Shown here: positions 894 through 37,634 of the stretch, in pieces
Position numbering within the stretch: the first letter of the stretch is position 1
How the letters are laid out: each line of letters starts with the position of its first letter
Virus record (IMG/VR): IMGVR_UViG_2870464427_000004
Location: 1-42,839 of that record
Direction: 5' to 3' (one strand)
Source: a virus
Lineage: Duplodnaviria > Heunggongvirae > Uroviricota > Caudoviricetes
DNA: 42,839 nucleotides
Made by a program: the position numbers and the translations under genes
Notes under the pieces: model-generated
Database searches by the model: none
Told to the model about the DNA's origin: nothing
What the model saw: only the letters and a program-made list of their open reading frames with translations

Positions 894-1448
894 TCATTTA
901 TCTCCGACCGGAAACTTCTTATACAAAGTCGATACGCCAACATCATAAATGATCGCCACATTCTGGCGATGAACTCCTGATGCAATTAGTCGCCCGGCCT
1001 GCGCCCATTGTTCTGGTGTAAGTTTGGGACGACGTCCACCAATTCGTCCCTGTGCGCGAGCAGCTTCCAGTCCAGCTTTTGTTCGTTCAACAATCAGTTC
1101 TCGTTCCATTTCAGCCAGGGCCCCCATCACATGAAAGAAAAAACGCCCCATCGGTGTGCTGGTATCAATAGCATCCGTCAGGCTGCGAAAATTAACGCCA
1201 CGTTCGCGCAACTCCTCAACCAGAATGACCAGATGCCGCATACTACGCCCCAGCCGATCCAGCTTCCAGACAACCAGAGTGTCACCTGCCGATAATGTCC
1301 TGAGCAGTTTTTTCAGTCCCGGCCTTTCGGACTTTGTACCGCTTATCTTGTCTTCAAAAATCAGCTCGCATCCTGCACAGTTCAGCGCATTACGTTGTAG
1401 ATCTGTGTTCTGGTCATTTGTTGACACACGTACATAGCCAATAAGCAT
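894..1448 (-). CDS. pin: Serine recombinase, Pin/Gin/Hin/Cin-family DNA invertase
   Basis: N-terminus MLIGYVRVSTNDQ (catalytic Ser motif), VVWKLDRLGRS, C-terminal HTH; sits adjacent to inverted-repeat-bounded tail-fibre segment. True start at ATG 1448 (ORF track extends to 1484). Confidence 0.9.
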   Translation of the reverse strand: MLIGYVRVSTNDQNTDLQRNALNCAGCELIFEDKISGTKSERPGLKKLLRTLSAGDTLVVWKLDRLGRSMRHLVILVEELRERGVNFRSLTDAIDTSTPMGRFFFHVMGALAEMERELIVERTKAGLEAARAQGRIGGRRPKLTPEQWAQAGRLIASGVHRQNVAIIYDVGVSTLYKKFPVGDK

Positions 1449-1502
1449 GGTAGATCTCCCTGACAAAAGCAGGAATGATGCCATTTGCTCGTTATTTCTG
1501 CA

Positions 1503-1528
1503 TTTTCATAAACGTTGGTTTGGGGGAA
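1503..1528 (+). promoter_or_regulatory. Left crossover site (hix/gix-like) for DNA inversion
   Basis: TTTTCATAAACG-TT-GGTTTGGGGGAA resembles 26-bp hix/gix sites (two half-sites around a central dinucleotide). Confidence 0.55.
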
Positions 1529-1594
1529 GGCTCTGCATTGCCTGTTGGTGTACCGGTTCCGTGGCCCACCGCCACACCGCCAGCAGGCTGGTTA
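1515..1594. repeat. Left inverted repeat (80 bp, perfect match to reverse complement of 3040..3119)
   Basis: Direct comparison of plus strand 1515..1594 with reverse complement of 3040..3119: identical; partial similarity continues inward. Confidence 0.9.
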
Positions 1595-2032
1595 CAGTGC
1601 AACGGAGCTACGTTCACCAAAGAACAATATCCTGTTCTGGCCAGAGTCTACCCGACCCTCCGTCTTCCCGATTTGCGCGGTGAGTTTATCCGTGGATGGG
1701 ACGACGGGCGCAAAGTTGATACAGGACGTAAGTTGCTGTCCGCACAAGGGGCAACGCTGTTAAGAACAGCAATGCTGGATTATTATAACCAGGACACTAC
1801 GGGAACCTCGGGGATAGTCGGCATGGGATTCAACAATGAAGATTCCATTACAGACCTTCGTGAGGGCAGCTTTAAAATGCCGGACGGGACAACATTCAGC
1901 GATCCTGTCATAGCAATGTCAGACAATGGTATGCAGGCTACTATTCTGACCTCTATCAGAAGCGGGTATGCGAAGGGTATCACTGTCAGACCCCGTAGCA
2001 TTGCACTTAATTACATTGTGAGGGCAGTTTAA
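1517..2032 (+). CDS. Silent alternative tail-fibre C-terminal cassette (no N-terminal constant part in this orientation)
   Basis: Translation [25 protein letters not shown]... shares the junction peptide with the expressed fibre at 2653..3474 and ends NYIVRAV; no plausible own start or promoter. Confidence 0.7.
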   Translation, partial: GLGEGSALPVGVPVPWPTATPPAGWLQCNGATFTKEQYPVLARVYPTLRLPDLRGEFIRGWDDGRKVDTGRKLLSAQGATLLRTAMLDYYNQDTTGTSGIVGMGFNNEDSITDLREGSFKMPDGTTFSDPVIAMSDNGMQATILTSIRSGYAKGITVRPRSIALNYIVRAV

Positions 2033-2646
2033 TGAGTAACACTGCAGTTCTGGATGAAAACGGTATCGCCACTGTAGCGGGCGATATCACTGTATATCAC
2101 TATGACGAGGAAACCCGGGAATACACCTCATCCTCTGTGGAGTATCTCGCCCTTGGGGTGGGTACTCCGGCACATTCGTGCGCCGATGCACCGCCGGAGG
2201 CAATTTCGGGTTACGTGGTTTGCCGGACTGCCACGCTGAACGGGTGGGAGCATGTGCCTGATCACCGCGGCGAGACGGTATACAGCACGGAGAACGGTAA
2301 CCCCGTTCTGATTACCCAACCGGGTGATTACCCGGCGGACACCACCACAAAACAGCCTGCCACACCATGGGATACCTGGAACGGTGAAGCGTGGGTAACT
2401 GATACTGAACGGCATAGAGCCGCAGAGCTGGAGACTGCCAGACTGCAACGCCAGAAACGGGTGGATCAGGCGATGAAGTCCATCGACCTCATCAACCTCA
2501 AACTGCGGGCAGGTCGCAGTCTGAAACCAGAAGAAACGGCAAAACTGAACGCCGTGCTGGATTATATCGACGAGCTGAACGCACTGGATATCAGCAAGGC
2601 ACCTGAAATCAGCTGGCCGGAAGCGCCACTGGCGCTTGCCGGCTGA
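2032..2646 (+). CDS. Tail fibre assembly protein (Tfa / Mu U-like chaperone), coupled to the silent cassette
   Basis: 204 aa, start overlaps cassette stop (TAATG); typical Tfa-like sequence with conserved C-terminal region. Confidence 0.8.
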   Translation: MSNTAVLDENGIATVAGDITVYHYDEETREYTSSSVEYLALGVGTPAHSCADAPPEAISGYVVCRTATLNGWEHVPDHRGETVYSTENGNPVLITQPGDYPADTTTKQPATPWDTWNGEAWVTDTERHRAAELETARLQRQKRVDQAMKSIDLINLKLRAGRSLKPEETAKLNAVLDYIDELNALDISKAPEISWPEAPLALAG

Positions 2647-2652
2647 ACGGTA

Positions 2653-3474
2653 TCACGCCGCCCTCACGATATAGTTAAATGCGATATTGCGGGGGCGAGC
2701 TGATACATAAGCCCACCAGTCATATCTTTGTGCACCTTTAGAGGATGCATCAAATATCCACTTTTTGCCATTTATGACCCCCAGTTGATTAGAGGTTAAA
2801 GCGTCACCAAATCCGTATTGTGTAGAGCCGAGCGAACTGATATCTCCGGTATCATTATCATCAAAACCGGATACGATAGTCCCTTCCTGAAATGAAAGTA
2901 GCGCACGCCCGGTATCAACCTTGCGACCACCGTCCCATCCACGGATAAACTCACCGCGCAAATCGGGAAGACGGAGGGTCGGGTAGACTCTGGCCAGAAC
3001 AGGATATTGTTCTTTTGTAAAGGCGCGCCCGTCGCACTTTAACCAGCCTGCTGGCGGTGTGGCGGTGGGCCACGGAACCGGTACACCAACAGGCAATGCA
3101 GAGCCTTCCCCCAAACCAAGGTTTTCGAGAGCCGTTTCCACCGTGCCATCCGATTTGATATCACCAAACGGATTCTTGCGGCTCAGGTATTCAACAGCAA
3201 ACCCCGATCCCAGCAATTCAACAAAACCGGGCAGATCACCATTATCAAGCACATCCCGTTGCGTTTTATCACTTACAAACTGGGCCAGAGCTGCAGCAAT
3301 AAAGCTGGCCTGCCGAATAACCTTATTGACTTGCGCACTGGAGGCTTTCCCTGCTGTAAATCCAGATAAAAGCGCGGGCAACGCTTCCCATTCCTCCTGC
3401 GATATAACATTGGCATTTCGATCCGTTGCAAACGCTTTAAAGTCATTTTTCGCCATCAGAGTAATACTCCCCAT
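2653..3474 (-). CDS. Tail fibre protein (constant N-terminal part plus currently expressed variable C-terminal part)
   Basis: 273 aa; crosses the right inverted repeat; likely true start at ATG 3456 (ATGA overlap with upstream gene stop). Confidence 0.85.
3040..3119. repeat. Right inverted repeat (partner of 1515..1594) with hix-like site CTCTCGAAAACC-TT-GGTTTGGGGGAA on minus strand (3105..3132)
   Basis: Perfect reverse-complement identity with 1515..1594; left half-site closely matches the Hin hix half-site. Confidence 0.9.
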
Positions 3475-4136
3475 GCTCCTACATCAAAACCACTGATGAA
3501 TTCGTTATCCATATCAAAACCAAAAAATTTTGAGCCTTCCGATGGGGTTTCCACCGAAGGTGTTTCAATGCCACCCGCCCATACCCCGGCGGCTTTTACT
3601 GTGAGATACCCCTGTTTAATTGCCGCAATTAACTCACGCGATACATCTGAAATATCAGTATCAGGAAAGACCCAGACCGATATCGTCATGTCCTGGTTAT
3701 CGACTATCTGCATTCGCAGTCCGGATCCTGCTGTTGCCGCGTCAAGAATTGCCGGAAGCGAATCATTCCGTCCGTCCCAGTTATTAATCGCAATCTTCGC
3801 TTTAAGGATGACACGATAAGTTTCATCGCTGAGGTACATGTGTCCGGAATCAGGATCGTATGGCCCCTGCCATACACCCTGATCATATCCAAGCCCGTCG
3901 GTATCCCAGCTGAAATAGGCACCTGAAATAGGCTGGCTGACAACACGGCTACGTCCGATCCACAATCCCAGAATGTCAAGTTGCACACCAACCGCAGAGT
4001 CAAAATCAAATGCAGTAATCAGCCCTCTGGTGGCAGCCGCAACATCAATAAGCGGCCGGGTCATCAGATCAACATGTGCAAGAAATTTAGGTTTGGTGGC
4101 GTGGTAGTTCGTGATTAGTTCGGTGTATTTGCTCAT
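3456..4136 (-). CDS. Baseplate/tail protein (Mu gp48-like, putative)
   Basis: 226 aa, position between baseplate J-like gene and tail fibre; translationally coupled. Confidence 0.55.
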
Positions 4137-5332
4137 GACTCCACCGTTATAACGATATTTTCCGGGGTACAGGACGCAGATTCGTTGTATCTGATATCAA
4201 TGTTTGATGACGACAAAGCCCCCGGGGATTTCCCAATCGTCAGTTCCTGAATATCGTAATAGCGTGCATTCCCGCCACTCACCACGCCAAGATTCGCCGG
4301 TGAGTAAATGCGACTTAAAAGGACCGAATCACCAATCATCAGACTATTGATATAGTCGGAAATAGCCTGCTGGATCTGCTGCCCTATCTGTGAGGTATAA
4401 CCCGTAAAAACTTTTAATTTAATCCGGGCATAAACAGGCACATCACTGGAACGCGAAAATTTGATTACATGGGGATTGCCGTATTTATCCGGAACCGTAA
4501 CGGATGTTGTACCGTGAGTGGCTGTCCCCGGGCCTTTATTCCCTCTGATAGCCTGAGCAATATCCGTCACATCACCGCCATCCACAATTACAGCAACAGA
4601 GTGTGGCGGTAACCCGTTACCGTCCTCCGAACCATTATCGTTTTCATAGAGTTTGTGGCGGGTTACACCGGTAACATTAGAAACAGCACCATCCAGTGCT
4701 TCAAATGGGGTTATTGATGGCAACGCAACACTTTGCGACTGTCGGATACGTAACTCCGCATCAGTTTCTGCCGGAGTGCCCACAGTAGCCGCAGCAGGAT
4801 TGGTTACCGAAACCCAGCCACGGGTTGGCGTATTAATTTCAGTGATAGTTCCAGCCAGCGCCGCCACTGCACCACTGACGGAACATGTTGCGGTCACCAT
4901 CACTGTACCATCCACGCCGACCACCACTGAAGCAGGCAAACGCCATATCACATTATTACTGTCTTTCACGCTGCCATTAATGATGGTTGTTCCGGCAGTT
5001 CCTGTAAGAAGCAAATCAACCGTAGAGTTCGTCGCGCCTTTACGTGAAATACCATTTATTTTCACGTTACTGGTCAGTGCAGCCCCATAGCCGGTTGCTG
5101 GTGAAAAACAGTTGTAGACAGTTATCGCCATATTATTGGCATCATGAATCGCCAGCGCCATCAGAGCCACCATCTGACCGTCCTTACTGTCCGGTTCGAG
5201 GTAGGCATCACTACCATAAATCTGCTGAAAATAGCTAATCAGGGTGCTGAGTATCGTCTGATAATCAGGCGCACTGATCCCCTCCGCGGTTACCTTTGCA
5301 GATAAACCGAGAGAATCAAGGTTCAGAGCCAT
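4133..5332 (-). CDS. Baseplate J-like protein (Mu gp47-like)
   Basis: 399 aa, size and position typical of baseplate J family; overlapping start/stop with neighbours. Confidence 0.65.
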   Translation of the reverse strand: MALNLDSLGLSAKVTAEGISAPDYQTILSTLISYFQQIYGSDAYLEPDSKDGQMVALMALAIHDANNMAITVYNCFSPATGYGAALTSNVKINGISRKGATNSTVDLLLTGTAGTTIINGSVKDSNNVIWRLPASVVVGVDGTVMVTATCSVSGAVAALAGTITEINTPTRGWVSVTNPAAATVGTPAETDAELRIRQSQSVALPSITPFEALDGAVSNVTGVTRHKLYENDNGSEDGNGLPPHSVAVIVDGGDVTDIAQAIRGNKGPGTATHGTTSVTVPDKYGNPHVIKFSRSSDVPVYARIKLKVFTGYTSQIGQQIQQAISDYINSLMIGDSVLLSRIYSPANLGVVSGGNARYYDIQELTIGKSPGALSSSNIDIRYNESASCTPENIVITVES

Positions 5333-5685
5333 TACGCCTCCGATGTAACAGTCGTTATTCCATAAAGAGTGTCGATTTCAGCGGAAAACATGACACGTCG
5401 GGTCGTGGTATCCACCGTCGTATTGAAAGAGAGGATTGATTTAACGCCCCGCGTTTCGAGAATGCGCTTACGGATCGCCAGGTTGTAGGTTTCAGGCTTC
5501 TGCTTACCGAGTACGGACTGGATCCACGGAGTTCCCTCGGTGGTGTCGAGAAACCATTGCCCATACCACAATTCGAATCGCGTTTTTACCGCCTGCGCCA
5601 CGGCCTCCGGTGAGTTAATCAGCCAGGTGTCATCACCGCTGCCAAAGGTGTAATCGCCATCGGCGTCTTCACGTCTGTATCGCAT
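5332..5685 (-). CDS. Small baseplate protein (Mu gp46-like, putative)
   Basis: 117 aa, conserved position in baseplate cluster. Confidence 0.5.
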   Translation of the reverse strand: MRYRREDADGDYTFGSGDDTWLINSPEAVAQAVKTRFELWYGQWFLDTTEGTPWIQSVLGKQKPETYNLAIRKRILETRGVKSILSFNTTVDTTTRRVMFSAEIDTLYGITTVTSEA

Positions 5686-6437
5686 CAGTTTACTCCGTCG
5701 GTATTGCTTCCACCGCGCTGAACACCACCATGAGTGTGCGTATCATCGATTGGCTTGCCGTTAGCCTTCACGCTACCCAAAAACTCAACAGCACCAGTGA
5801 TTTTTGAAGCCACACCAGAAACAACAGCCCCCACCATGCCACCCATCCAGGTTAACAGTCCATGAATGGTTACTTTCTCAGAAAAATCAGCCAGAGGGGC
5901 AACCACATCAAGACCACCCGGAGCGACAATTTTAATTTTCCTGGTATCAGGATTAAGCTCAAAATAGGTGCTGCCGTCATCACTACGCAACTGTGTGGCA
6001 CTGGTATTAATACCGCTAATCTTCCTTGCCTGCGACTGGGGACCGACAATACAAAACGCATCCGATAAATCATGCATTCTGTCATCGACCGGCTCCTGTA
6101 TCCCGCCGCTCTGCCACCAGAAATCAATACAACGATCGGCAAAAATCACCAAACATTCATCACCGGCTTTAACTGGGAACGTTAGCGTGCATCCTCCGCC
6201 GCGCGGGAATACCACTGGCACATCCACCAGCAATGGGTAATTTTTGGTAATGCGCTTGCCGTCATTATCCTTTTCAACCGAACGGATAGCAGGCTGCACA
6301 ACTGCCGTCACCGCATCAGGATCGAATGACTGAATAATGCCAGGCAAGGCGACACGGATCTGGTTCTTTGTTGTTTCCCTTTCAGATTTGAATGTTTCGG
6401 CAAGGTCGCCGCTGCGGGTCTGGTCAGATACTGCCAT
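5685..6437 (-). CDS. Baseplate assembly protein (Mu gp45 / V-like, putative)
   Basis: 250 aa, within baseplate cluster; coupled to downstream gene. Confidence 0.5.
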   Translation of the reverse strand: MAVSDQTRSGDLAETFKSERETTKNQIRVALPGIIQSFDPDAVTAVVQPAIRSVEKDNDGKRITKNYPLLVDVPVVFPRGGGCTLTFPVKAGDECLVIFADRCIDFWWQSGGIQEPVDDRMHDLSDAFCIVGPQSQARKISGINTSATQLRSDDGSTYFELNPDTRKIKIVAPGGLDVVAPLADFSEKVTIHGLLTWMGGMVGAVVSGVASKITGAVEFLGSVKANGKPIDDTHTHGGVQRGGSNTDGVN

Positions 6438-6453
6438 TTAGTAGGCTCCAGAA

Positions 6454-6480
6454 AGCAAAAAACCCGCCATCCGGCGGGTT
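6454..6480 (-). terminator. Rho-independent terminator downstream of lipoprotein gene
   Basis: Minus strand: acccgcc-ggat-ggcgggt stem-loop followed by TTTTTTG. Confidence 0.65.
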
Positions 6481-6502
6481 TTATGTGACTAATTTGATCT
6501 TT

Positions 6503-7228
6503 TCAGTTTATAAGCCCCATCTTACCGGCGCTTCGATAGTTAATTACATCGCCTGAAGAGCCGCAAGGCACAGCTACAGTCGACATTTTGACAAATCCTT
6601 TACCGCCCTGCTTTTGGCATAAAGTGGCATGCATTTTTGCTAAACGCGCAGCATGACCAAAATCAATTTTGGTTCCGTAAGTTGAATCTCGTAGAGCTGC
6701 TTTTTTTGCAATTCCGGTAATATTTTTGTCTTTAATTACAGATGCAAACAAACTCAAATCATTTCCAATTTGATTGAAGCAAGTACGATTAATATCAACA
6801 TCGGCATACGCTGAAATGCGTTTGCAATCTGCGATCTGAGAAAGCACAGATGTGTTAACCAGTTGCAAATTTAATTTGTAGTCACCGACATAGGTATAAA
6901 CTTTGTTAGGGTCCGTGGTTCCCGGATAACGAGTTACGAATGGAATGCTGTTGTACGCATCTCGCAAAGATTCTGCACCCTTACTTGTAAGCTCGTTCCC
7001 AACACCATCAACGATAACCTCTGGATGTGAAACTTCAAATTGAGACTTTTCTTCGCGCTGTATTTGAAGCCTGCTTTTCTGGCTCTCCTCAACTTGCTTA
7101 TCGTACGCTTGTTTTTCTTCATTTTTTTGGGATAGCCATTTTTCCTGAGCTTTAGCACCATTAGGATCCCAACTACATGAAGTTAAAAAAAGAGAAAATA
7201 CGATTGTGGTTATCGCAAGCCTGCTCAC
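6503..7228 (-). CDS. Lipoprotein (accessory gene inserted in baseplate operon)
   Basis: 241 aa; signal peptide with lipobox LTSC; AT-rich by eye relative to neighbours; own terminator. Confidence 0.75.
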   Translation of the reverse strand: MSRLAITTIVFSLFLTSCSWDPNGAKAQEKWLSQKNEEKQAYDKQVEESQKSRLQIQREEKSQFEVSHPEVIVDGVGNELTSKGAESLRDAYNSIPFVTRYPGTTDPNKVYTYVGDYKLNLQLVNTSVLSQIADCKRISAYADVDINRTCFNQIGNDLSLFASVIKDKNITGIAKKAALRDSTYGTKIDFGHAARLAKMHATLCQKQGGKGFVKMSTVAVPCGSSGDVINYRSAGKMGLIN

Positions 7229-7230
7229 TA

Positions 7231-8295
7231 TTATGCACCTCGATTCATCGCTGACTGGCTAGGAATATCACTAGCACCTCGAGCAAAGCACATCATATCC
7301 ATGTACCACGCCTGGCCCCTTGTGTCGCCAGTGTACATAATCCCGCGCACAATATAAACGCCATCCGTTGCGATGCTGGCAGGCTGCGATATGGTGCCGC
7401 TTAGCGTAATATTTCCGTCCGTGTTCTGGTCGGTGATCTGCCCACCAGCCATAGCGATATCGTTGTTCGACAACGCGGTGCGATATACGGAAGCCTGATC
7501 CAGTTGAATGAGCCCATTAACCCGGATGTTCGGATTAATAAGCGCGCGGACGTTTACGCCGTTGCCGATGGTCTGCTGCGGCATGCCAATAAGCCCGGTA
7601 GCGCTGTTGAGCACAATCGCTTCGTGAACATATTCATTATTCACCACCATCTGGCGCTGACCATCCACGAATTGCCATGTTGCGCCACATTGCCCGGCTA
7701 CGTTATCCATTAGATGTCGCGTCATGCCAAAGAGCACCCGCCCCCGGGGGAATACAGTAGCAGGCATTTCAGGCGTCAGGCCTTCGGTCGCACCTTTGGC
7801 TTCGAAGTCTTTCATCAGCGCACGGTTCACATCAGCGACCGTGTAACCGGCAGCCAGCGTCTGTGAGGTTATACTGGTGGCAAAAGCCAGATCAGTATCT
7901 GCTGCCTGAATCAGGACGTAGGAATCAACCGGGCTGTCTTTTCCTGTGACCGAGTAGCGAATTTCACCGCTGAAAATCAGTCCGTAGTTGCGGCCATCAC
8001 TCTGGCCCACGTCCGCCGCATCAACCTCCCGCACGGTCCCGACATCGCTTGCCGACACCTCCGGCGCGATACCGTCGTAACCCGCAATCAGACGCACTTT
8101 CGAAAACTCCTGCCCGGTAATTCGGTTCACAGTATCTGCCGAGAGGTTATAAATTTTGATAGTCCCTACCCGGGACGCGCTGCTGATGTTGAACCAGTCG
8201 ATCGTAAAGGTGACTTTGAAATCACTTAGCTCAATTCCCTGACCGTACCCGTCCACAAGCTGCAGCTCGAAATGTCTCATCCAGTTCTGTGACAT
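7231..8295 (-). CDS. Baseplate hub / tail protein (Mu gp44-like, putative)
   Basis: 354 aa, upstream of baseplate cluster, downstream of tape measure region. Confidence 0.5.
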   Translation of the reverse strand: MSQNWMRHFELQLVDGYGQGIELSDFKVTFTIDWFNISSASRVGTIKIYNLSADTVNRITGQEFSKVRLIAGYDGIAPEVSASDVGTVREVDAADVGQSDGRNYGLIFSGEIRYSVTGKDSPVDSYVLIQAADTDLAFATSITSQTLAAGYTVADVNRALMKDFEAKGATEGLTPEMPATVFPRGRVLFGMTRHLMDNVAGQCGATWQFVDGQRQMVVNNEYVHEAIVLNSATGLIGMPQQTIGNGVNVRALINPNIRVNGLIQLDQASVYRTALSNNDIAMAGGQITDQNTDGNITLSGTISQPASIATDGVYIVRGIMYTGDTRGQAWYMDMMCFARGASDIPSQSAMNRGA

Positions 8296-8297
8296 GC

Positions 8298-8600
8298 TTA
8301 CTCCGTTGATACCAGTAAATGACTGCGCCCGCCCAGGTCAGTTTTCGTGGGATAATCCTGTGTGTTGTCATCGCAGACCACCAACAGCTTAAAACCAAGT
8401 CCCATACAGGCGTACTGCGCCAGCAGGTCAGCGCCAGTGACGAGAGGTATACCGGAGATTACCGGCTCCCCTCTGTCGTTCTGCAGGTCCATAATCCAGT
8501 ACAGATCGCGCCATATGATGCTAATCCGCCAGGTGACACCACCCAGGACGATGCTGAACTGCTGGTTGTCCGCTGTCAGCGGAATTTCCTGAATTGTCAT
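8298..8600 (-). CDS. Tail protein, hypothetical
   Basis: 100 aa ORF tightly packed in tail operon. Confidence 0.45.
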   Translation of the reverse strand: MTIQEIPLTADNQQFSIVLGGVTWRISIIWRDLYWIMDLQNDRGEPVISGIPLVTGADLLAQYACMGLGFKLLVVCDDNTQDYPTKTDLGGRSHLLVSTE

Positions 8601-9187
8601 TATCCGCCTCCCAGTAATGACACCACGTTACCCGTGATGCTTTTCAGCAGTGAAGTATCTGGAGGCTTTGTGGTTTTGTTGCCGCTGTTCTGTACCGCCG
8701 ACGTGCTGGCCCCTTCCTTCATGTTGGTTTTATCAGCGACGGTGATCTGCTGTGTCCGGGAGATAAGGACCTCCCTCAGGGTGAGGACGGCGGACAGGAC
8801 GTTTTCGGTTGTCTTGTCCGTCGTCACTTCCAGCGCCCGGATCAACATGTTGCTGTACAGCCGTTTACCGGTTACCACATCGAAGGGGATACGGCTTTCC
8901 TGCAGATCCAGTAGCTCCTGATACGTCTGCTGAGGACTCAGGCCGAGCAGGCTGGTAGCCGTCAGGTTACTGGCAAAATCCAGCAATGCGCCGCCACCGG
9001 CGAAACCAACCTCCATCACCACTTCTGACGGTTTTTTATAGGCATGATCAGCGACAGCAGCCCCGACCTCTACCGGATGCTCTGTTATTTCAAGCATATC
9101 TGTATGCTTCTCTGAAATAACAACACTGGGAACAATCATTCCTATTTTTCTGCTCTGCTGATGAAAAAGTGTAGAGAGAATATCCAC
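8600..9187 (-). CDS. Tail protein, hypothetical
   Basis: 195 aa ORF immediately downstream of tape measure gene. Confidence 0.45.
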   Translation of the reverse strand: MDILSTLFHQQSRKIGMIVPSVVISEKHTDMLEITEHPVEVGAAVADHAYKKPSEVVMEVGFAGGGALLDFASNLTATSLLGLSPQQTYQELLDLQESRIPFDVVTGKRLYSNMLIRALEVTTDKTTENVLSAVLTLREVLISRTQQITVADKTNMKEGASTSAVQNSGNKTTKPPDTSLLKSITGNVVSLLGGG

Positions 9188-11175
9188 TAACCCACCCTCA
9201 CCTGATTACTTCGCATGACCTGAGCATTTGCAGACTGTTGCCGACGTGCAACCTCATTACCGACAGCGTGCGGATCTCCGCCACCGTAAATGTGGTAGGT
9301 ATTTTGCTGGTTAACCTCTGTCACTTTGCCACTAATTCCTGCCACGGCAGCCTTATTAATCAGCTCTCGGGAATAGATATTTCTTCCATTTTCATGCTGG
9401 ATAATGCTGCTCATCAATGCTGACATGGTTTGCGGATCGCTCATATTCAGGGCAGCCCGGGGATCCACTCCCAGTCGTTGCGATACAGCCCTGATATACG
9501 CAGTTGTGTTGTTATTATCAGACGCAGGTGCCCAGGTAGAGATAATTTTCTCCACACTGTTTATTCCCCGTCCGGCGTACAGCATTAACTGACGAGCAAG
9601 AGCCCGTAATCCATCAAAAGCAGTTTCAAATCTGGCAAATCGCCCGCCCGGGCGTTCAAGAGAAGCCCCTGCCTGACCAGCAAAATTAAGGTTTCCCGGA
9701 TTGTTATTCCGTTCTCCTCGTTTCGTAGCCTGTGCATATTGTTCCGGCTCATCATCACCAAACCAGCCGCGTACCGTCCGGCCCACACTGCGGGGATCGA
9801 ATCCCCAGTGCTCTTTAATCCAGTCGGCAGTACTGTTAGCGCTGTCTGTAACCATCGGCATCGCTGACGGATTTTCGCTGCCCTGATTAAGTATCTGTTT
9901 GCCGATGCTGACGGCATCAGCCCAGCGGCCATCTTTGATAGCGTTGAGCAGGTCAGCGATCATGTTCAGCATTTTGCTGAATTCGCCCATCTGGTCGATG
10001 AAGTTGCTGAAATCCCACTTCAGGGACCATGATTTGGGGTCAATATTGAGCAGTTTCGCCAGCGCTTTCACCAGGTCGTTAACGGTCGTTTTAAGGTCAC
10101 GAACCATCTTCAGCGCGGCATCGACCTCCGGTTTCCACTTGCCCCAGTCAATCAGGCTGTCGCCGCCTTCCTTCCAGGTCTGATAGTCCTCCCACAGGAG
10201 GGCAATACCCGCCGCCAGCGCGGTAATGAGGCCAATCGGCGACATCCAGAACGTACTGTTCAGAATGCGCAGCGCAATCGTCAGTGCGCCAAACAGCGAG
10301 ATCAACTCCCGCGTTTGCTTATCCAGCGATTGCCACCAGGTGATAAGGCCTGATGTCCCCTCAATCAGTCTGAAGAACAGCCGCCCGATAATATCCCCGA
10401 GCGCCAGAATGCCTTTTATGGCTTTCGTCAGGGTCTGCTCGATACGAGGGAAGTTGTCCAGGATATGGCGGCGCAGGGTGTCCAGCGAACCCGCAAGCCC
10501 CCCCGCAAGATTAGAGCCGATTTTGTCACGGGCCATGCCTGCCATCGCGCCAAACTCACGCAGGGAGGTCATAAATTTGTTGGAGCTTCTGGCCGCCTCG
10601 TCAGCATTGAAGCCGATAGCTTTCGCCATTGCGCTGTACTGCCCGGAGAAGCCACCCACACCCCGGCGCATCGCCATAAGGGTATTTTCGTCAATGCCCA
10701 GCATCTGCGCATACTGGTTAGCCCGGTAATACGGCATGCTGCTGAGTTTCTGTCCAACGCCCGTAAAAATAGCGGCCATGTCACGCATGTTACCGCTGGC
10801 ATCACGGGTCTGTACGCCCAGGCGATTCAGAAAGCCTTCTGCACCGGGATTGTTACGAATAAACCGGGAGAGGCTTTCCAGAGAAGATCGCGCAGCGTCC
10901 ACGCTGCCGCCAACCTGCGAAACCGCATAGCCAATAGACTGAATTCCCTGGACTGTCGCGCCGGTGCGCTGTGACGCCCAGTAAAGATTATCCAGGCCGG
11001 AGGCGATCTTAGCCGTGAAGGCCACCACGGACAGCGCAGCTCCTTCAACAGCCAGCCCCATTTTGATGACATTTGCAGTTGTACCGGCGAGGACAGAACC
11101 GAACTTTTTCGCTCCTGCATCATCCACACTGAAGCCAAGCGAGACGAGGAAATCTTTAATAGTTTCAGCGTTCAT
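9187..11175 (-). CDS. Tail tape measure protein
   Basis: About 660 aa, Ala/Gly-rich, internal hydrophobic segments; ATG at 11175 preceded by GGAGAGAGG RBS (ORF track start 11196 is TTG). Confidence 0.8.
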   Translation of the reverse strand: MNAETIKDFLVSLGFSVDDAGAKKFGSVLAGTTANVIKMGLAVEGAALSVVAFTAKIASGLDNLYWASQRTGATVQGIQSIGYAVSQVGGSVDAARSSLESLSRFIRNNPGAEGFLNRLGVQTRDASGNMRDMAAIFTGVGQKLSSMPYYRANQYAQMLGIDENTLMAMRRGVGGFSGQYSAMAKAIGFNADEAARSSNKFMTSLREFGAMAGMARDKIGSNLAGGLAGSLDTLRRHILDNFPRIEQTLTKAIKGILALGDIIGRLFFRLIEGTSGLITWWQSLDKQTRELISLFGALTIALRILNSTFWMSPIGLITALAAGIALLWEDYQTWKEGGDSLIDWGKWKPEVDAALKMVRDLKTTVNDLVKALAKLLNIDPKSWSLKWDFSNFIDQMGEFSKMLNMIADLLNAIKDGRWADAVSIGKQILNQGSENPSAMPMVTDSANSTADWIKEHWGFDPRSVGRTVRGWFGDDEPEQYAQATKRGERNNNPGNLNFAGQAGASLERPGGRFARFETAFDGLRALARQLMLYAGRGINSVEKIISTWAPASDNNNTTAYIRAVSQRLGVDPRAALNMSDPQTMSALMSSIIQHENGRNIYSRELINKAAVAGISGKVTEVNQQNTYHIYGGGDPHAVGNEVARRQQSANAQVMRSNQVRVG

Positions 11176-11404
11176 TATCCTCTCTCCATTTCTCAATGCG
11201 TCGCTGGTTATCCGCTTTTACCGCCAGATGGTCATTCAAGAGAGCAATGTCATACAAATCGACAGAGCCATCTTTAAGTGCTGTATAAGGAATTAACCCG
11301 GCGTCAACCGGATTGAGAAGGTAGGACAGCCCGTCCGGCAGGCTGTTAAACGTCAGCCCTGTTGCAGGCTCTGCGTCGTGCTGGTAAGGGGTGTAGGCAA
11401 AAAA
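11165..11404 (-). other. Putative -1 programmed frameshift extension of tail assembly chaperone
   Basis: Slippery heptamer T_TTT_TTG (minus strand, 11398..11404) 18 codons before the 0-frame stop; -1 frame stays open for 77 codons to TGA at 11165..11167, overlapping the tape measure start. Confidence 0.55.
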
Positions 11405-11805
11405 TTTCCCAGCGAATCGGCGACCACCCGCGCCACCAGTTGCAGCATGACCAGCAGGTCAATATCATCAAACATCAGTTCACCCTGGGTAAATACCGGC
11501 ACCCAGCCGTCCATATGACGCCGCGATACCACCGCAAGACAGGGATGAATAATCGCATCGGTGTCATCTTCGGTCAGGGAAGACAGTTCCTCAGCGATAC
11601 GCGGGAGCATGGTTTCAAACACCGGTTTTAACTGTTCGAATTTCACGGTGTCGATTTTGCCGTCAGCAGGCAAACGGGAGCGAATACTCCCGAAATCTGA
11701 CATCATTCCTGCCAGCACCGGCAGAAGTTTGCGGGTCACTTTCAGCTGGTCAAAAACGCTGAGTTTTGCCGTGCGATATTTCACGCCTTTAATTTCGAAT
11801 TCCAT
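11353..11805 (-). CDS. Tail assembly chaperone (0-frame product)
   Basis: 150 aa, located between tube and tape measure genes as in G/GT systems. Confidence 0.6.
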   Translation of the reverse strand: MEFEIKGVKYRTAKLSVFDQLKVTRKLLPVLAGMMSDFGSIRSRLPADGKIDTVKFEQLKPVFETMLPRIAEELSSLTEDDTDAIIHPCLAVVSRRHMDGWVPVFTQGELMFDDIDLLVMLQLVARVVADSLGNFLPTPLTSTTQSLQQG

Positions 11806-11808
11806 GTA

Positions 11809-12249
11809 TTAAAACTCCCCGAGAACCTGGTCAATCTTGCCGCAGTCAAACACCCACGGCATCGTATTACCGGTTTTAGCGTTGGCGTTATCCGGTTGTT
11901 TCTGGAACGCAACACTGCGTGCCGTGATGATGTCGCCGCTGACCTTGTTGCGGATCACGATAACGTTATTCCCCCATGTGGCAGAAGACTGGCTCTGTGC
12001 GTTATACGCCAGCGACAATTTTTTATTTGTCGGTGATGTCTTCAGAAGGTTAACGGTTATCGTCCCGCTTTTATCTGCATGGAGGCTGTGCATCACTTCG
12101 CCATCAGCACCGATGGTCATGGTGTTTTTAGGACCGCCCATCGCAACCACAATCCCCTCCTCAGAACTTGCCGAACCGTACCCGAGGTCAATCGAACCGG
12201 TCGGCCCGGTCAGCGTCGCAGTGACATCCATAAAAGAATAGGTAGACAT
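11809..12249 (-). CDS. Tail tube protein (putative)
   Basis: 146 aa, immediately downstream of sheath-like gene. Confidence 0.55.
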   Translation of the reverse strand: MSTYSFMDVTATLTGPTGSIDLGYGSASSEEGIVVAMGGPKNTMTIGADGEVMHSLHADKSGTITVNLLKTSPTNKKLSLAYNAQSQSSATWGNNVIVIRNKVSGDIITARSVAFQKQPDNANAKTGNTMPWVFDCGKIDQVLGEF

Positions 12250-12259
12250 TCACTTCCCC

Positions 12260-13405
12260 TTAGCGAACAACGTTAATCTGTACGTCAGCGTAATGAACCG
12301 CGCCTGCAAGTTTTATTGCAGCCTGAATCACCGGAGCCTTACGGGCTTCACGTTCTGATTGTGCCTGTTCATCCAGCGGCTGGGCGTATACGTAATAACC
12401 TTTGGGCAGCGTGTCACCTGATGACAACTGACCCAGGTCGCCACCGTTCCATACGCCCGGAGCAATCAGTCCATTCTGAACGGCCTGATCCAGTGATTTT
12501 TCAACATTTGATAACAGTCGGGTAATACCGGCTTCAGTCTGGGGAACTTTCGTGGTGCTGGTATAAAGCAGGTTATAGAGGCTGGTCTGCACATAATTCT
12601 GTAACCAGTCCAGGCCGTGGCGTTCATCAAAGAAATCGCCGTTAGCCATCACTCCCTGCTGGAGGATAGCTGTATCATTCTGGTAGTACACGAACACATT
12701 GCAGTTTTTTGCATCAAGTGCCGATGCCTGGCTGACTGTCAGTGTTTCATACCCGACCCCCGGCTCCTGCTTAAACTTGAGCGTAATCGCGGTATTACTG
12801 CCATTGAAATTAACCGTGAATGCCCGGCCAAATGCAGATAACGCAGCGTATTTATTACCCGATGAATACTGAATAAAACTGCGTGAATATCCGGCGGTTT
12901 TCAGTTTTGATGCCAAATCATCTCTGGATGCAGTCTGCAGGCATTTCTCATCGCTTGTCGTAATCGCCAGAATACGGCTTACAGAAGAGGATTCGATCGC
13001 CGCAGCCACTTTCAGCCAGTCTGCATCCGGAATATCTTCATCGTCTGCAATCCCCAGTCCATACCATGAAGTATAATCAAGCATGGCATTCACAGCCTGC
13101 TCCAGCGTCTCAGGCGTGGCCTGTTCGCTGTCTCCCTTCGTTTTCACCCAACGACCGACAAAAACCTCCTGAGGTTTCGGTGATTGTGAGAAAAACACCT
13201 GCGCAGCTTTATATTCTGGTGATTCCACGCCAAAATCTTTTCCAATATCTTCCGCGGCAGAATAACGACGAATGCGCTCACTTACCGGAATGATTGTGGA
13301 CGGGCCGAGAATGAGTAATGCACCAAAATTTCGCCCTGATGCTGCACGCGGCGACATGATCACATCAACATTAACAACGTTTGATACAGGCAAGCCCTGT
13401 GCCAT
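12260..13405 (-). CDS. Tail sheath-like protein (putative)
   Basis: 381 aa, conserved position upstream of tube, chaperone and tape measure. Confidence 0.55.
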
Positions 13406-13408
13406 AGC

Positions 13409-14017
13409 TTAATCTCCGAAAAAGATGACTGGTGCTTCCACCAGCGATTTAATACCGTACTCGCGCACAACCTTCCGGCGCAGGCGCACCGTCATATCGT
13501 AGCGGCGGACCCATTGCTGATTAATAAGTTCAGGGAAGGGAGTCAGACCTGTGTAATCGCCAAGAGACAGCCCCAGCGCATTCAGTGCTGCGTTGTTCTG
13601 CGGTACAGATATACCGTCACGAAACCGGGACGCATACACCATCCCCGCCGGACCATAAAACGAAGCCATACACTCAATCGTTTCATGCCGCCAGAGCTGA
13701 GAGCCATCATCGGTCTGTCTGGTGAATGCCGGACTGTCATCACCTGACCATCCGATAACCCCAAACGCACACCAGTTCGTTTCAGCCGGTAGCAGTGGCG
13801 GTTGCTCTTTCTGCCAGCGCGGACGAACCATCCCGGCAGACAGACCGGAAACGTTACGCATCCACTGGCTTAACAGCCTGTCGAGCGCTTCGTCATAATC
13901 CGGATCGCCACTGGTTGGTATCAGCCATCCGCGCTCTGTGCTGGTGTTATTGCTCAACCGAAATTCCCCCATCAAACGGCAGCAACTCACAATGCGCCTG
14001 AACGAATCCGGCACCAT
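13409..14017 (-). CDS. Tail/neck structural protein, hypothetical
   Basis: 202 aa ORF in structural operon; start uncertain. Confidence 0.45.
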   Translation of the reverse strand: MVPDSFRRIVSCCRLMGEFRLSNNTSTERGWLIPTSGDPDYDEALDRLLSQWMRNVSGLSAGMVRPRWQKEQPPLLPAETNWCAFGVIGWSGDDSPAFTRQTDDGSQLWRHETIECMASFYGPAGMVYASRFRDGISVPQNNAALNALGLSLGDYTGLTPFPELINQQWVRRYDMTVRLRRKVVREYGIKSLVEAPVIFFGD

Positions 14018-14336
14018 ACGCTGTATACGGGTCGACGAAAGTCACACGATAATCACGGCCCTGATACGTCACGATATCGGCATCACGGCCAGTCTGTCCC
14101 TGCGTCAGTCGCTCAGTCGTCACAATCAGAATTGCACCACTGATTACCTGCCCGGCCTGCATACGACGGTTTTCCAGAGAGCGATCAACAGTTACGACTC
14201 CGGCAAACTGCTTTTTAACTTCGCTGTCGCTGCCGATCCCGTCCTCATCCACCGTTTGCACACGGCGTGTTACCCACAAATTGAAGTCGCAAAAATCGGG
14301 GTCAAAAAGCACATCTGTTACATCAAGAGTCGGCAT
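13947..14336 (-). CDS. Head-tail joining protein, hypothetical
   Basis: 129 aa ORF in structural operon. Confidence 0.45.
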   Translation of the reverse strand: MPTLDVTDVLFDPDFCDFNLWVTRRVQTVDEDGIGSDSEVKKQFAGVVTVDRSLENRRMQAGQVISGAILIVTTERLTQGQTGRDADIVTYQGRDYRVTFVDPYTAYGAGFVQAHCELLPFDGGISVEQ

Positions 14337-14877
14337 TTTTATCCCTCACAACATGGGTAATCGCTCTGCGATATTGCCCGGTGTCAATTAATGGTTTCGC
14401 CAGTTCGGTTCCCGGGGATTCGCCAGCAGCACGCCGGGCAAGTTCCAGTGTTGCCCCCTTGCGCCCCCGACGAGCCCGGGCTTCAACAGTACTGTCAGCA
14501 AGCGGCGTAAAGCCGGTAATGGTCATGTAACGCCTGACGCCATTAACGGCCAGCGTTCCGGCACGGTTGAGTGCGCTTTCTGCTCCCGCAGCATTACCAT
14601 CAAGTGCAGCCTGCGCCGCGGTTTTGAGCTGCGGCACCGTCAGCTCTTCTGCCGATTTAACGCCGGGGACCAGGTGAGGTCGTGGCGGGATGTTCTGCTC
14701 TGGTGAGCCGTATTCGTTGAGGTAACCGATGCCCGCATTACCAAACGGAACATCATCCCGCCCGCTGTCTTCCGAAGGGATGCCGACCAGCACATCTTTT
14801 TTGGTTAACGACCTGAGCGCATCCAGAATGGCCTTAGCGTTATCCACCCTCGTTGTTACACCGCTTTTGAAACTCAT
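14323..14877 (-). CDS. Virion morphogenesis / tail completion protein (putative)
   Basis: 184 aa; motif [12 protein letters not shown] resembles phage virion morphogenesis family; position between head and tail genes. Confidence 0.45.
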
Positions 14878-15281
14878 AGCTGGCGACCGCCTGCACCGAA
14901 CACCGTGATCAACTGATAAAATTCAGCGCCATATCGGGTGTTATTCCAGAAACCTGCGTCAGGGTTTAGCGTCGCGCTGGTGTCATAGCTGACGCTTACC
15001 TTGTCAACGGACTTGGAGGACTGAACACCATTGGTTGAGCCACCCGGGCCGCCGACGAGCATTGCCCGGCTATCTGCCGCCCAGAGCGTCATGTAGTGAG
15101 CCACGAACAACTCGACAAAGTACGGAAACAACTCTTTGCCGGTGACGTTTTCGCTCAGCAGCGCATCAGCCAGATTCAGACGAAACTGGATTTGTGCTTC
15201 GGGATATTTGGCAGGGTCAGCAAACTGTGGAAAGTCGCGCCGAAAATCACTTACTGTTGGCAGGCTTTGATTCTTTGGCAT
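14874..15281 (-). CDS. Head-tail connector protein, hypothetical
   Basis: ORF 14874..15365 with likely internal start MPKNQSL at 15281. Confidence 0.45.
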
Positions 15282-15615
15282 CTTTCGCCCCATTACCGCC
15301 AGTCTGGGCGGCAGCAATCTGCGCTTGCAGGCTGTCGTTCTGCTCCTGCAGTTTGAGCAATGCATCTTTCAGATCGGCAATCAGCTTATCTTTGTCGGCA
15401 ATCTGCGCTTGCAGGCCGTCGATAATGGGTTGCAGATCATCGGTGTCGCTAATCACGCTTTCGGAAAGCTCAGAGTGCGCCTGGGTGAACCAGTGCGACG
15501 CGACCTCTTCCGGTACGTTATGCCGTCCCCGGCCAAACTCCTGTTTTGACTGATCGCCGAGCGTCAGCGTAAACGGGGTGTGAACATGGATGGTAACCAG
15601 CTTTTCTTTCGCCAT
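15247..15615 (-). CDS. Hypothetical head-associated protein with coiled-coil C-terminus
   Basis: Internal start [11 protein letters not shown] at 15615 with AAGGAA RBS. Confidence 0.5.
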
Positions 15616-15628
15616 TTCAGTTTCCTTC

Positions 15629-15644
15629 AGGCCCCTTTCGGGGC
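15629..15644 (-). promoter_or_regulatory. GNRA-tetraloop hairpin just 3' of major capsid gene (transcript attenuator/stabiliser candidate)
   Basis: Minus strand GGCCCC-GAAA-GGGGCC, 12 nt after capsid stop; no U-tract. Confidence 0.35.
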
Positions 15645-15655
15645 CATTCTGGTTA

Positions 15656-16597
15656 TCAGATACCGTCCACATAGGACAGAGTTTCTTTATACACTGGCTC
15701 GACTGCACCCAGCTTGCCGTAGTAAGTGACGATCTGATACAGACCGCGATACTGCACCGGCACGCTCTGAAGCGGAACCAGCGGGTAGCGGACGTATTTT
15801 TTATCGTTGGTGTACGCAACCATGCGATCCTTACCCCCCACACCACGGCCTTTCAGCCATTTAACCGCGCGGATATTCAGCGGAACACCGTTCTGGTGAT
15901 AGCTGATGGTGTTGGTCTGAAGGTACGTCAACAGGGACTGGTTACCCGCAGATGAAACGATGATGCTGGACAACAGAGCAAACTGCTCAGGCGGGATCAG
16001 CAAATCACACGGAACCACAGAGTAACCGGAAGCGGCCCACGCATCAGACAGCACCTGGTTAATGCTTGCGCGGATTTCGTCCGGTGTTGAGGTTGCCCAC
16101 TTTTTGGCAGCGTTGTTGACAGGCACGCCGTCCAGGGTAACAAGGCCTTTCAGGTTTAATGCGGAATCGCCAACATACACCTGTTCATCGTTATCCATCT
16201 GCCATTTCAGTTGCATCCCGTCATACTTCTGCGTATCAATCGGGCGTCCGGCCTGCTGAGCAGCCTGCAATTCTATGACCGTCCAGCCAAGTTCCATCCC
16301 CCACAGGTTCAGCGGGTTACCGGATTTGCTGATATCCACGTTCACGCCAGCAATAGCGGTTGAGTCTTTGCCTACCCAGTTTTTGCCATTCGGATTTGCA
16401 CCAGTACCCGCAGCGGCGAAGCTGGTATTCGTCCAGCTGGAAATGTCATCTGCGATAGACACGTCTTCACGCAGTTGAATATCTCGGGTCCAGGTGTACC
16501 CCACCAGAGGCAGGTTCAGCGTCTGGTCGAGTCGCTCCAGCTCCCCGATGAGAAAGGCACCGGAGCTATCTACGGTTGCCTGATCAAAAGTAATCAT
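15656..16597 (-). CDS. Major capsid protein (Mu-like head subunit family, putative)
   Basis: 313 aa, position after decoration/scaffold genes; followed by strong hairpin. Confidence 0.75.
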   Translation of the reverse strand: MITFDQATVDSSGAFLIGELERLDQTLNLPLVGYTWTRDIQLREDVSIADDISSWTNTSFAAAGTGANPNGKNWVGKDSTAIAGVNVDISKSGNPLNLWGMELGWTVIELQAAQQAGRPIDTQKYDGMQLKWQMDNDEQVYVGDSALNLKGLVTLDGVPVNNAAKKWATSTPDEIRASINQVLSDAWAASGYSVVPCDLLIPPEQFALLSSIIVSSAGNQSLLTYLQTNTISYHQNGVPLNIRAVKWLKGRGVGGKDRMVAYTNDKKYVRYPLVPLQSVPVQYRGLYQIVTYYGKLGAVEPVYKETLSYVDGI

Positions 16598-16608
16598 TTG
16601 TCTGTTCC

Positions 16609-17112
16609 TTAAATCTTCCAGGAGATTTCTGCATTACCGTTAGCGTCACCGGCACCAGTAAATTCAGCATTCGCGAGTACGACAGTTTTCCCTTCCACGC
16701 TTGAAGAGCAGAAACCACCCAGCGGCACTTTAATAGATTCATCAGTGGAGACGACAACGTATACCGGGTCGCCTTTTTTGATGGTGCTGGCATCAAAATC
16801 AGAACCGAGATTAACGGTCACGTAGCCACGTTTCATGGCGTCGCCCGGGAAGTTCTTGCCACTCCCCACCTGGCGAACCATGTCCGGCTGTGATGTGGTC
16901 GGATACGGACGAACGTAGATCCCCTTCACTTTGTCGGAGGTGTCACCGTCCGCCAGCGGCACAAAAAAGCCGTCAGCGTCGTATTTGCCAGCCAGACCAT
17001 AGGCAGCGAAGGCGTTAGCGGATTTAAGGATCACCGGCTCGACGGTTAAATCCTGCGGGCGAGAGATAGCCCCGGCAATGCCAACAGGCATCCGGTACAA
17101 ATATGCAGTCAT
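16609..17112 (-). CDS. Head protein (decoration/structural, putative)
   Basis: 167 aa ORF between scaffold/protease and capsid genes. Confidence 0.45.
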   Translation of the reverse strand: MTAYLYRMPVGIAGAISRPQDLTVEPVILKSANAFAAYGLAGKYDADGFFVPLADGDTSDKVKGIYVRPYPTTSQPDMVRQVGSGKNFPGDAMKRGYVTVNLGSDFDASTIKKGDPVYVVVSTDESIKVPLGGFCSSSVEGKTVVLANAEFTGAGDANGNAEISWKI

Positions 17113-17116
17113 TGGA

Positions 17117-18349: not shown

Positions 18350-18363
18350 GGGTTACCTGCGAT

Positions 18364-22077: not shown

Positions 22078-22079
22078 AC

Positions 22080-25183: not shown

Positions 25184-25606
25184 CTACAACCATAGCACAT
25201 GTTTTTGTGCGCACACAACCTTTTCAGGTAAAGCAACTTCAGGGTCCATATCCAGTCGAATTCCCTGGAGCACCAGCGCTCCCTCAAGAAATGCCTCTGA
25301 CGCTCTAAGCGATGTTCTGACGCTAAGGTGGCTACGATTCACAGATTCAGCGATTGAGCGCGTAGAAAAGCCGCCGATGAAACGTAGGCCAAGAACCAGC
25401 AAGTCGTCATGCGGACACACCATGCTCATGTGGACGATGCAGGTGTCAATTGCGGCTCCGTCCTCGTCGGAGCAACCGGGTTTGCCACTGGCGGTTACGC
25501 GTTGAGGAATCACCGACATCGAAGGCCAGTCAACCATTGAACAGTATTCCTCGCTCGCGGCCCATCGCCCCCACCGCTCCAGAACAAGTTGCATATCTCT
25601 GCGCAT
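25184..25606 (-). CDS. Late-gene antiterminator (Q-like)
   Basis: 140 aa; N-terminus MRRDMQLVLERWGRWAA resembles Q-family antiterminators; position between replication and lysis genes. Confidence 0.55.
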   Translation of the reverse strand: MRRDMQLVLERWGRWAASEEYCSMVDWPSMSVIPQRVTASGKPGCSDEDGAAIDTCIVHMSMVCPHDDLLVLGLRFIGGFSTRSIAESVNRSHLSVRTSLRASEAFLEGALVLQGIRLDMDPEVALPEKVVCAQKHVLWL

Positions 25607-26074: not shown

Positions 26075-26125
26075 GTTTGTTTACTCCACTTAGCTATTTG
26101 CAGTTTTCTGCAAGTTTATTGTTGA

Positions 26126-26386: not shown

Positions 26387-26390
26387 CTTT

Positions 26391-37630: not shown

Positions 37631-37634
37631 AAAT

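Follow-up and report, generated by a model that had tools for sequence, protein, structure and literature searches.

Prophage envelope proteins encoded among tail genes, such as Cor, Llp and HK97 gp15, make up a class of anti-phage and host-modifying proteins that is small yet important, with few described families. Llp of phage T5 is located at the outer membrane, on its periplasmic side (PMC9586334). The HK97 gp15 gene is part of the tail operon, and its product blocks DNA entry without blocking the receptor; a moron, as defined in the same source, carries its own promoter and its own terminator (PMC3594210). The Spackle protein (Sp) of T4, which is periplasmic, binds the muralytic domain of an incoming tail tip and thereby shields the infected cell (PMC7677548). 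Here we analyse a lipoprotein gene situated between the baseplate hub and spike genes of a tailed virus (IMG/VR record IMGVR_UViG_2870464427_000004, positions 1 to 42,839; this whole stretch of DNA is called the window below). Its product is best filed among prophage accessory envelope proteins encoded in tail operons, as an uncharacterised newcomer.

With Llp and Cor (of T1, phi80 and N15) the protein shares a type II signal peptide, a gene placed beside tail or receptor-binding genes and an intramolecular disulfide, a probable one in our case (PMC9586334). In N15, too, a terminator is annotated after cor, inside the tail gene block. The sizes are different: the precursors of Llp and Cor have 77-78 amino acids (aa), with 61 aa left in mature Llp and ∼60 aa in mature Cor, whereas the window protein has 241 aa (224 aa when mature) and consists, after its signal peptide, of a 46-residue helix and a 174-residue domain. 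Comparison with Cor (N15 gp24; BLASTP and hhalign) aligned only residues 5-21, i.e. the signal peptide and lipobox, and for Llp we obtained an hhalign probability of 9% over 9 columns and a BLASTP E-value of 35. The suspicion raised in the first-pass annotation, that this family is not that of Cor, is thus confirmed and extends to Llp. Further, the T5 llp gene has its own promoter and is divergently transcribed, while no promoter was found for the window gene; no link to an FhuA-type receptor is known for the window lipoprotein, and its allele is not tied to that of the fibre.

The likeness to HK97 gp15, and to morons generally, is of another sort: an extra gene in the tail operon, with deviant content of guanine and cytosine (GC), absent from close relatives, encoding an envelope protein and followed by a terminator. 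Still, gp15 is no lipoprotein: it is a small protein of the inner membrane, with YebO as a relative. When the definition of a moron (Juhala/Hendrix; Cumby et al. 2012; PMC3594210) is applied, the gene shows the sporadic presence (11 carriers against 218 carriers of the flank) and the deviant GC, but we detected no promoter, its start codon follows closely on the hub stop codon, and the terminator is that of the lineage. A strong terminator does follow the gene; however, it is common to all cargo types and to an empty junction, while a distant long homologue, P0043, has a terminator of its own. As to T4 Spackle, an analogous target exists here, an endolysin-like domain at the C-terminus of the tape-measure protein.

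An exchangeable accessory lipoprotein gene

The gene (6503..7228, minus strand, from the open reading frame list) starts with GTG and encodes a 241-aa precursor with the N-terminus MSRLAITTIVFSLFLTSC. Reading of the sequence predicts a signal peptide of residues 1-17, with the lipobox L15-T16-S17 followed by the lipidated Cys18 (7175..7228, minus strand; the Cys codon is at 7175-7177). As the lipoprotein criterion we required a positively charged n-region, a hydrophobic core and a lipobox [LVI][ASTVI][GAS]C whose Cys lies no more than ∼15-35 residues from the start, the form of the PROSITE PS51257 pattern. The charged n-region with R3, the hydrophobic core and L-T-S-C18 satisfy this rule. Cys18 was invariant in an alignment of 15 homologues and the rule was satisfied in 43 of the 69 distinct family sequences (the remainder being mostly fragments or near-matches, or having a lipobox recognizable by eye), therefore the lipobox is no chance match. 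The lipoprotein with lipobox LTSC described in the first-pass annotation was borne out in this way. The residue at +2 is Ser in the window protein, and no family member had Asp at +2. In E. coli, Asp at this position blocks sorting to the outer membrane (the Lol-avoidance rule). We infer from the sequence that the product is lipidated at Cys18 and, via its +2 Ser, sorted to the outer membrane.

The composition of the gene differs from that of its neighbours. Its GC content is 0.409 overall and 0.339 at third codon positions (GC3), compared with 0.539 and 0.606 in the hub gene and 0.501 and 0.478 in the spike gene; the remark, made at first by eye, that the gene is AT-rich relative to its neighbours has therefore held in calculation (40.9% GC against 50-54%). 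A GC content as low as this was seen in 3.8% of 726-nucleotide (nt) segments across the 42.8-kb window. At every homologous locus both GC and GC3 of the lipoprotein gene were below those of the hub gene.

Of 5426 complete E. coli genomes, 11 have the gene (two more matches are partial and distant) and 218 have the flanking region. Homologues came from E. coli, Serratia and Limnobaculum genomes, a Hafnia phage, and IMG/VR, ENA and Logan contigs. All homologues with readable context (34/34) adjoin the hub gene of this tail module; 33 homologues, the window not counted, lie between hub and spike and have 36-99% identity. The distant long form P0043 (335 aa; L045:5001-6008) is situated on the other side of the hub, between plug and hub, in two contigs. 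The GC content of the P0043 gene is 0.28-0.32 against 0.50 in its flanks, and its own terminator comes directly after it.

Divergence of the gene is discordant with that of its flanks. Between the window and locus L022 the synonymous divergence (dS) was 0.5-1.0 in the flanking genes and 0.055 in the lipoprotein gene; for L015 and L016 the values were 0.03-0.19 and 0.013, respectively; for L025, flank dS was 0.5-0.9 while the lipoprotein gene was saturated (48% amino-acid identity). Such discordance argues that the cassette moves between diverged phages by recombination. Omega values of 0.1-0.4 in the lipoprotein gene correspond to purifying selection. Judged by these comparisons, we characterized the gene as an optional, recombinationally exchanged accessory cassette kept under purifying selection. 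The gene of L024 is itself a mosaic with respect to the window, with 57% identity in the helix and 86% in the domain, which suggests that tether and domain may be exchanged separately.

One could ask whether the product is a structural component of the baseplate, an outcome that the first-pass annotation had left room for. No homology to a known baseplate protein was detected in Pfam, in PHROGs or among solved folds, and relatives with 97-99% identical baseplate proteins do without the gene. We classified it as an accessory gene and not a structural part of the baseplate.

The family has few members. For the window lipoprotein we observed no Pfam-A family at E ≤ 0.01, no NCBIfam match below E 0.2 and no PADLOC match; in PHROGs there was a lone weak match to phrog_3727 (E 0.0047), covering the signal peptide and helix. 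A tblastn search of 50,697 phage records and 72,556 plasmids returned no homologue. A word-indexed search of 5.8 billion proteins gave 15 homologue clusters, down to 41% identity, and an exhaustive profile search of 1.84 billion representatives gave 36 sequences at E ≤ 1e-3. Two sequence matches in the PDB, a designed helical filament and a ‘ChiB complement-inhibiting protein’, were rejected as non-homologous; the ChiB alignment covers the signal peptide and charged helix only, and a literature search on ChiB produced nothing relevant. In some E. coli genomes (NZ_CM136170, NZ_AP042480 and NZ_AP042548; H20, H22 and H23) the Prokaryotic Genome Annotation Pipeline (PGAP) labels the lipoprotein as ‘HMG-box domain-containing protein’; most likely the charged helix gave rise to this label by a spurious match.

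A lipobox is present in nearly all family members. One member from the same slot, P0025, has an ordinary signal peptide in place of the lipobox and is a soluble periplasmic variant. The part between the N-terminus and the C-terminal domain also varies, being a long charged helix (as in the window), a Pro-rich linker, an extra N-terminal domain of ∼150 aa, or missing altogether. The conserved unit is the C-terminal domain: in an alignment of 37 sequences C135 and C150 were invariant and C204 and C222 nearly so, and the remaining near-invariant positions were hydrophobic, Gly or Tyr. These four cysteines probably form two disulfides. Several residues that are invariant in close homologues (H68-P-E70, R100, S139 and Y141) could be thought to indicate an enzyme; we rejected this idea because they are not kept in the wider family, where H68 and E70, as well as H192, another position invariant in close homologues, are variable. 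As far as conservation in the alignment can tell, a disulfide-stabilised binding domain probably fits better than an enzyme, with binding rather than catalysis as its activity.

The AlphaFold2 model of the full-length protein has a mean predicted local distance difference test (pLDDT) score of 85.9. A long charged alpha-helix of residues 22-67 (7028..7165, minus strand; pLDDT 88-95), a predicted tether or spacer, is followed by a globular, mostly helical domain with small hairpins (residues 68-241; 6506..7027, minus strand) in which the four conserved cysteines lie. The domain modelled alone, from 37 sequences, reached pLDDT 94.2 and a predicted template modelling (TM) score, pTM, of 0.88. A Foldseek search against BFVD produced a single borderline match to an unnamed viral protein of 324 aa (E 0.0099, TM 0.51), and no counterpart of the predicted fold was found among solved structures at a meaningful score. 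The family is thus uncharacterised, very rare and an orphan in both sequence and predicted fold.

The hub-spike junction as a cargo slot

The two genes that bound the slot were identified by profile matches, in agreement with the earlier placing of the gene between two baseplate genes. Upstream is the gene of the baseplate hub (7231..8295, minus strand; phrog_196, 5.4e-87, and a weak match to PF22759); downstream is that of the membrane-puncturing spike (5685..6437, minus strand; PF18352, 1.5e-44, and the Apex motif PF18946), a gene that PGAP also calls spike protein at the identical E. coli locus.

An intrinsic terminator with a 10-bp stem, a GGAT loop and a T-run is situated at 6449..6482 (minus strand; found by reading of the sequence and by a terminator scan), 19 nt before the spike ATG (6437). 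The hairpin, AAAACCCGCC-GGAT-GGCGGGTTTT, runs from 6482 to 6459 on the minus strand and is followed by the T-rich tail; by number of stem pairs it ranks first among the terminator-like sites of the late region 2600-22500. We observed a GC hairpin, a T-run and a Shine-Dalgarno (SD) sequence, 11-21 nt before the spike ATG, in all 29 distinct spike-upstream regions (L001-L048). The stems carry compensatory changes: CCCGCC/GGCGGG, CCCACC/GGTGGG, CCTCGCC/GGCGAGG, CCCGTC/GACGGG and CCCTTG/CAAGGG. The hairpin is kept in relatives whose slot cargo differs; it is also still there in L045, where the hub-spike junction has no cargo and measures 62 nt. Therefore the terminator is a constant of the lineage, and we rejected the possibility that it belongs to the lipoprotein gene. 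Of the first-pass claim that the gene is followed by its own intrinsic terminator, the strong terminator stands and the ownership does not. Nor is the gene well described as ‘inserted’ into the baseplate operon, as was first suggested: the hub-spike junction serves as a cargo slot throughout the lineage, and at least two exported proteins alternate in its first position. It is the terminator that makes this junction the single roomy, non-overlapping one in a tightly packed baseplate operon, with cargo located just upstream of it. The same terminator divides the late operon into a part with the lysis, head, tail and hub genes and a part with the spike, wedge and fibre genes.

Deposited relatives vB_EcoM-689R2, 606R2, 611R5 and 683R1, Yersinia phage YP3 and Salmonella phage SEN34 (Brunovirus), with hub proteins 82-97% and spike proteins 68-98% identical to those of the window, have other genes between hub and spike; different slot genes are found in close relatives at 97-99% identity of the baseplate proteins. 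Where the lipoprotein is missing, the gene directly after the hub encodes a protein of 111-117 aa (∼95 aa when mature) with an ordinary signal peptide, which belongs to phrog_3443 and is named by NCBI ‘STY1065/STY2022 family phage-derived protein’ (for instance, on the minus strand in first position after the hub, L001:2908-3243, L011:4740-5093, L003:3436-3777 and L004:2390-2731). A literature search on STY1065 found nothing relevant. This family, which is the occupant in most E. coli relatives, takes the same position as the lipoprotein, directly after the hub and before the slot terminator, and is exported too; however, it is unrelated to the lipoprotein in sequence and is much commoner in E. 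coli (the gene region matches ∼100-140 complete genomes against 11 for the lipoprotein). SEN34_20 appears to be annotated too short, as the tblastn match runs further upstream.

The two families appear mutually exclusive, save for 3′ remnants: 21-26 codons of the 3′-end of an STY1065-family gene lie directly after the lipoprotein homologue at L039-L041:6553-6630 and L042:5303-5371, Hafnia phage yong1 being among the loci with such a remnant. In sequence, these remnants look like scars of cassette replacement. Extra cargo is found between the exported-protein gene and the terminator at L009:6782-7396, L026:6842-7913, L028:6880-8068, L039:6794-7790 and L011:3581-4571; it includes the YafO toxin together with its partner, a protein of 197 aa that contains an HEAGH motif, a membrane protein of 204 aa whose N-terminus is charged, and two paired proteins of 273 and 127 aa. 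These look like defence or toxin-antitoxin modules. The slot is a reproducible place to seek accessory and defence genes in a widespread prophage type, the cargo being upstream of the sole strong terminator in a Q-dependent late operon.

The late operon is headed by the gene of a Q-type (lambda-type) antiterminator (25184..25606, minus strand; PF06530, 1.4e-29, and annotated by PGAP in L010). The holin, lysozyme, terminase and head genes and then the tail module follow 3′ of it, all on the minus strand. The phage is a Q-regulated temperate myovirus of E. coli with a tail of the SEN34/Brunovirus-like type. Transcription modified by Q passes through terminators, so a strong terminator can be tolerated inside the late operon.

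The start codon of the window lipoprotein gene lies 2 nt past the hub stop codon. In 34 of the 35 homologue loci the distance from the hub stop to the start is from -8 to +11 nt; the exception, L038, is a probable mis-pick of the start codon. By sequence reading, an SD sequence GAGGTG (7236..7241, minus strand) is present 7 nt before the GTG, within the 3′-end of the hub gene. We found no promoter of its own nearby: the nearest sigma-70-like site on the minus strand is ∼400 nt upstream with 9 of 12 matches, in a consensus scan that weak or non-sigma-70 promoters may escape, and the count of sigma-70-like sites was not above shuffle expectation. Taken together, the 2-nt gap, the SD sequence inside the hub gene and the missing promoter-like site argue that the lipoprotein is most likely translated from the Q-antiterminated late transcript. 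Some expression in the lysogen is possible.

Candidate roles of the lipoprotein

The reading that we prefer, tentatively and with confidence a little below an even balance, is that the protein shields a cell, whether infected or lysogenic, from incoming phages at the level of the envelope. It is proposed because cargo of a defence type shares the slot, a second exported family occupies the same position, and HK97 gp15, Llp/Cor and T4 Spackle provide precedents; the YafO toxin-antitoxin pair among the slot cargo gives it a defence context. In such a mechanism, the helix of ∼46 residues would hang the disulfide-stabilised helical domain from the outer membrane into the periplasm, where the domain would bind a periplasmic target. 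This could be a component of the host envelope needed by phages, in the manner of T5 Llp, which jams FhuA from the periplasmic side; alternatively, the target might be the penetrating tail tip. That the domain works in the periplasm is what we infer from the existence of a soluble variant, from the disulfides and by analogy with Llp.

Several observations weigh against protection as the role. No function could be assigned by homology, with nothing in PADLOC and no solved fold; no promoter was found of the kind that a classical moron expressed from the prophage would have; and the persistent linkage to the hub could instead reflect a role in the phage's own cycle. Also, the allele of the lipoprotein is uncoupled from the phage's own fibre, spike and tape-measure lysin, while coupling would be expected of a self-matched system such as Llp-pb5. 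Concerning the spike, in L014 the lipoprotein is 99% identical and the spike 69%; concerning the fibre, one lipoprotein allele occurs with fibres 48-99% identical; concerning the lysin, L001 lacks the lipoprotein but has an identical lysin, and in L022 a lipoprotein of 98% identity goes with another tape-measure C-terminus. This lack of coupling disfavours a strictly self-matched blocker and makes a target in the host envelope, or some conserved penetration step, the better candidate. Since the lipoprotein allele travels without the fibre, spike and lysin alleles, a block of the phage's own receptor of the Cor/Llp type is somewhat disfavoured on sequence grounds. Two specific candidates were likewise weakened: a Spackle-like cognate inhibitor of the phage's own tape-measure lysin, by the missing allele coupling, and a receptor mask matched to the phage's own fibre, by the occurrence of the same allele with fibres of 48-99% identity.

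One could speculate further that the position next to the hub is a dedicated ‘periplasmic guard’ locus, where both the lipoprotein and the STY1065 families block penetration by tails of the same architecture. The lipoprotein would then be an outer-membrane-tethered inhibitor with a new fold, whose rigid helix sets the depth at which it catches the hub, spike or tape-measure protein of the tail tip, and not a receptor mask. We regard this as decidedly unlikely; if true, it would make a new mechanistic class of superinfection exclusion.

Among the other explanations, a helper acting in the lytic cycle only appears unlikely, though of these it is the one with the better claim. A protein of this sort, made late with the tail proteins, would mask or alter an envelope component and so spare new virions from debris, vesicles and infected cells, with no benefit to a lysogen. 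The tight coupling to the hub gene, the missing promoter-like site, the Q-dependent late operon and the constant presence of the gene within the block of tail-tip genes all agree with such a role, and for T5 Llp a function in lytic conversion, through a block of the receptor, is described (PMC9586334). On the other hand, the gene is missing from close relatives that were deposited as phage genomes (vB_EcoM-689R2 and others), the allele is unlinked to that of the fibre and hence to receptor specificity, and the expression timing itself is deduced from sequence. The strict linkage to the hub over 36-99% identity and on either side of it, the translational coupling to the hub gene and the fact that some exported protein fills the first post-hub position in nearly all relatives could be taken to mean that the protein is needed in the phage's own cycle, as a factor of tail or baseplate assembly or as an accessory of lysis or envelope penetration. 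This we consider highly improbable. Tails assemble in the cytoplasm, while the lipoprotein is predicted to be exported and lipidated; the relatives with 97-99% identical baseplate proteins manage without it; the hub-spike junction of L045 is empty; a separate holin/lysozyme cassette exists, with a further open reading frame after the lysozyme gene; and both the evolutionary history and the GC content are unlike those of structural genes.

The protein could also serve host fitness or virulence in a way unrelated to phage infection, for example through resistance to serum, as with Bor or TraT, through adhesion or through tolerance of stress. Prophage lipoproteins with such roles exist, e.g. lambda Bor, and the size of the window protein is near that of TraT; carriers of the gene include urinary and other clinical E. 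coli isolates. Still, there was no match at E ≤ 0.01 in Pfam-A, a library which includes models of both Bor and TraT; the soluble periplasmic variant argues against exposure at the surface; homologues are found in Limnobaculum and Serratia genomes and a Hafnia phage, with carriers from cattle, cat and other sources; and the family was never seen outside this tail module among the 34 homologues with readable context. We consider such a role improbable.

Whichever of these roles applies, the gene is a well-defined candidate with a clean comparative signature: a fixed address on the side of the hub, its own recombination history and a commoner exported alternative. If the lipoprotein does exclude phages, as in the protective role that we prefer, it would point to a novel target in the periplasm, or a novel step of myovirus entry, and would be relevant to predicting phage susceptibility of clinical E. 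coli. If the gene is phenotypically silent, it is an ordinary hypothetical moron-like gene only.

Other features of the prophage

The region is 100% identical to prophages of five complete E. coli genomes, including those of strains 85.0412 and NCTC9022. In the tail module the order of genes is tape measure, Dit-like, plug, hub, lipoprotein gene, spike, sheath initiator, baseplate J, wedge and fibre. The C-terminal 177 aa of the tape-measure protein (window 9187-9720, minus strand) match the solved endolysin 7q47_A (E 2.8e-13) and Gp29 of 9vvp; judging by these matches, the tail probably delivers a muralytic domain into the periplasm. In the close relatives L022 and L023 the endolysin-like domain is exchanged for another one.

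At the near-identical E. coli locus, a pinE-type recombinase gene lies beside partial tail-fibre genes and an oppositely oriented fibre assembly gene (window 894-2646, L010:14483-16235), which suggests that the fibre segment is invertible, as the G segment of Mu and the C segment of P1 are. The fibre alleles differ widely among otherwise near-identical prophages.

The stretches of lowest GC content in the window (0.36-0.38) are at 37550-38800 and ∼25976-26750. They include the open reading frames 37635-38204 (minus strand), with no Pfam match, and 38430-39308 (minus strand), with a weak match to DUF7946, and may represent further accessory genes.

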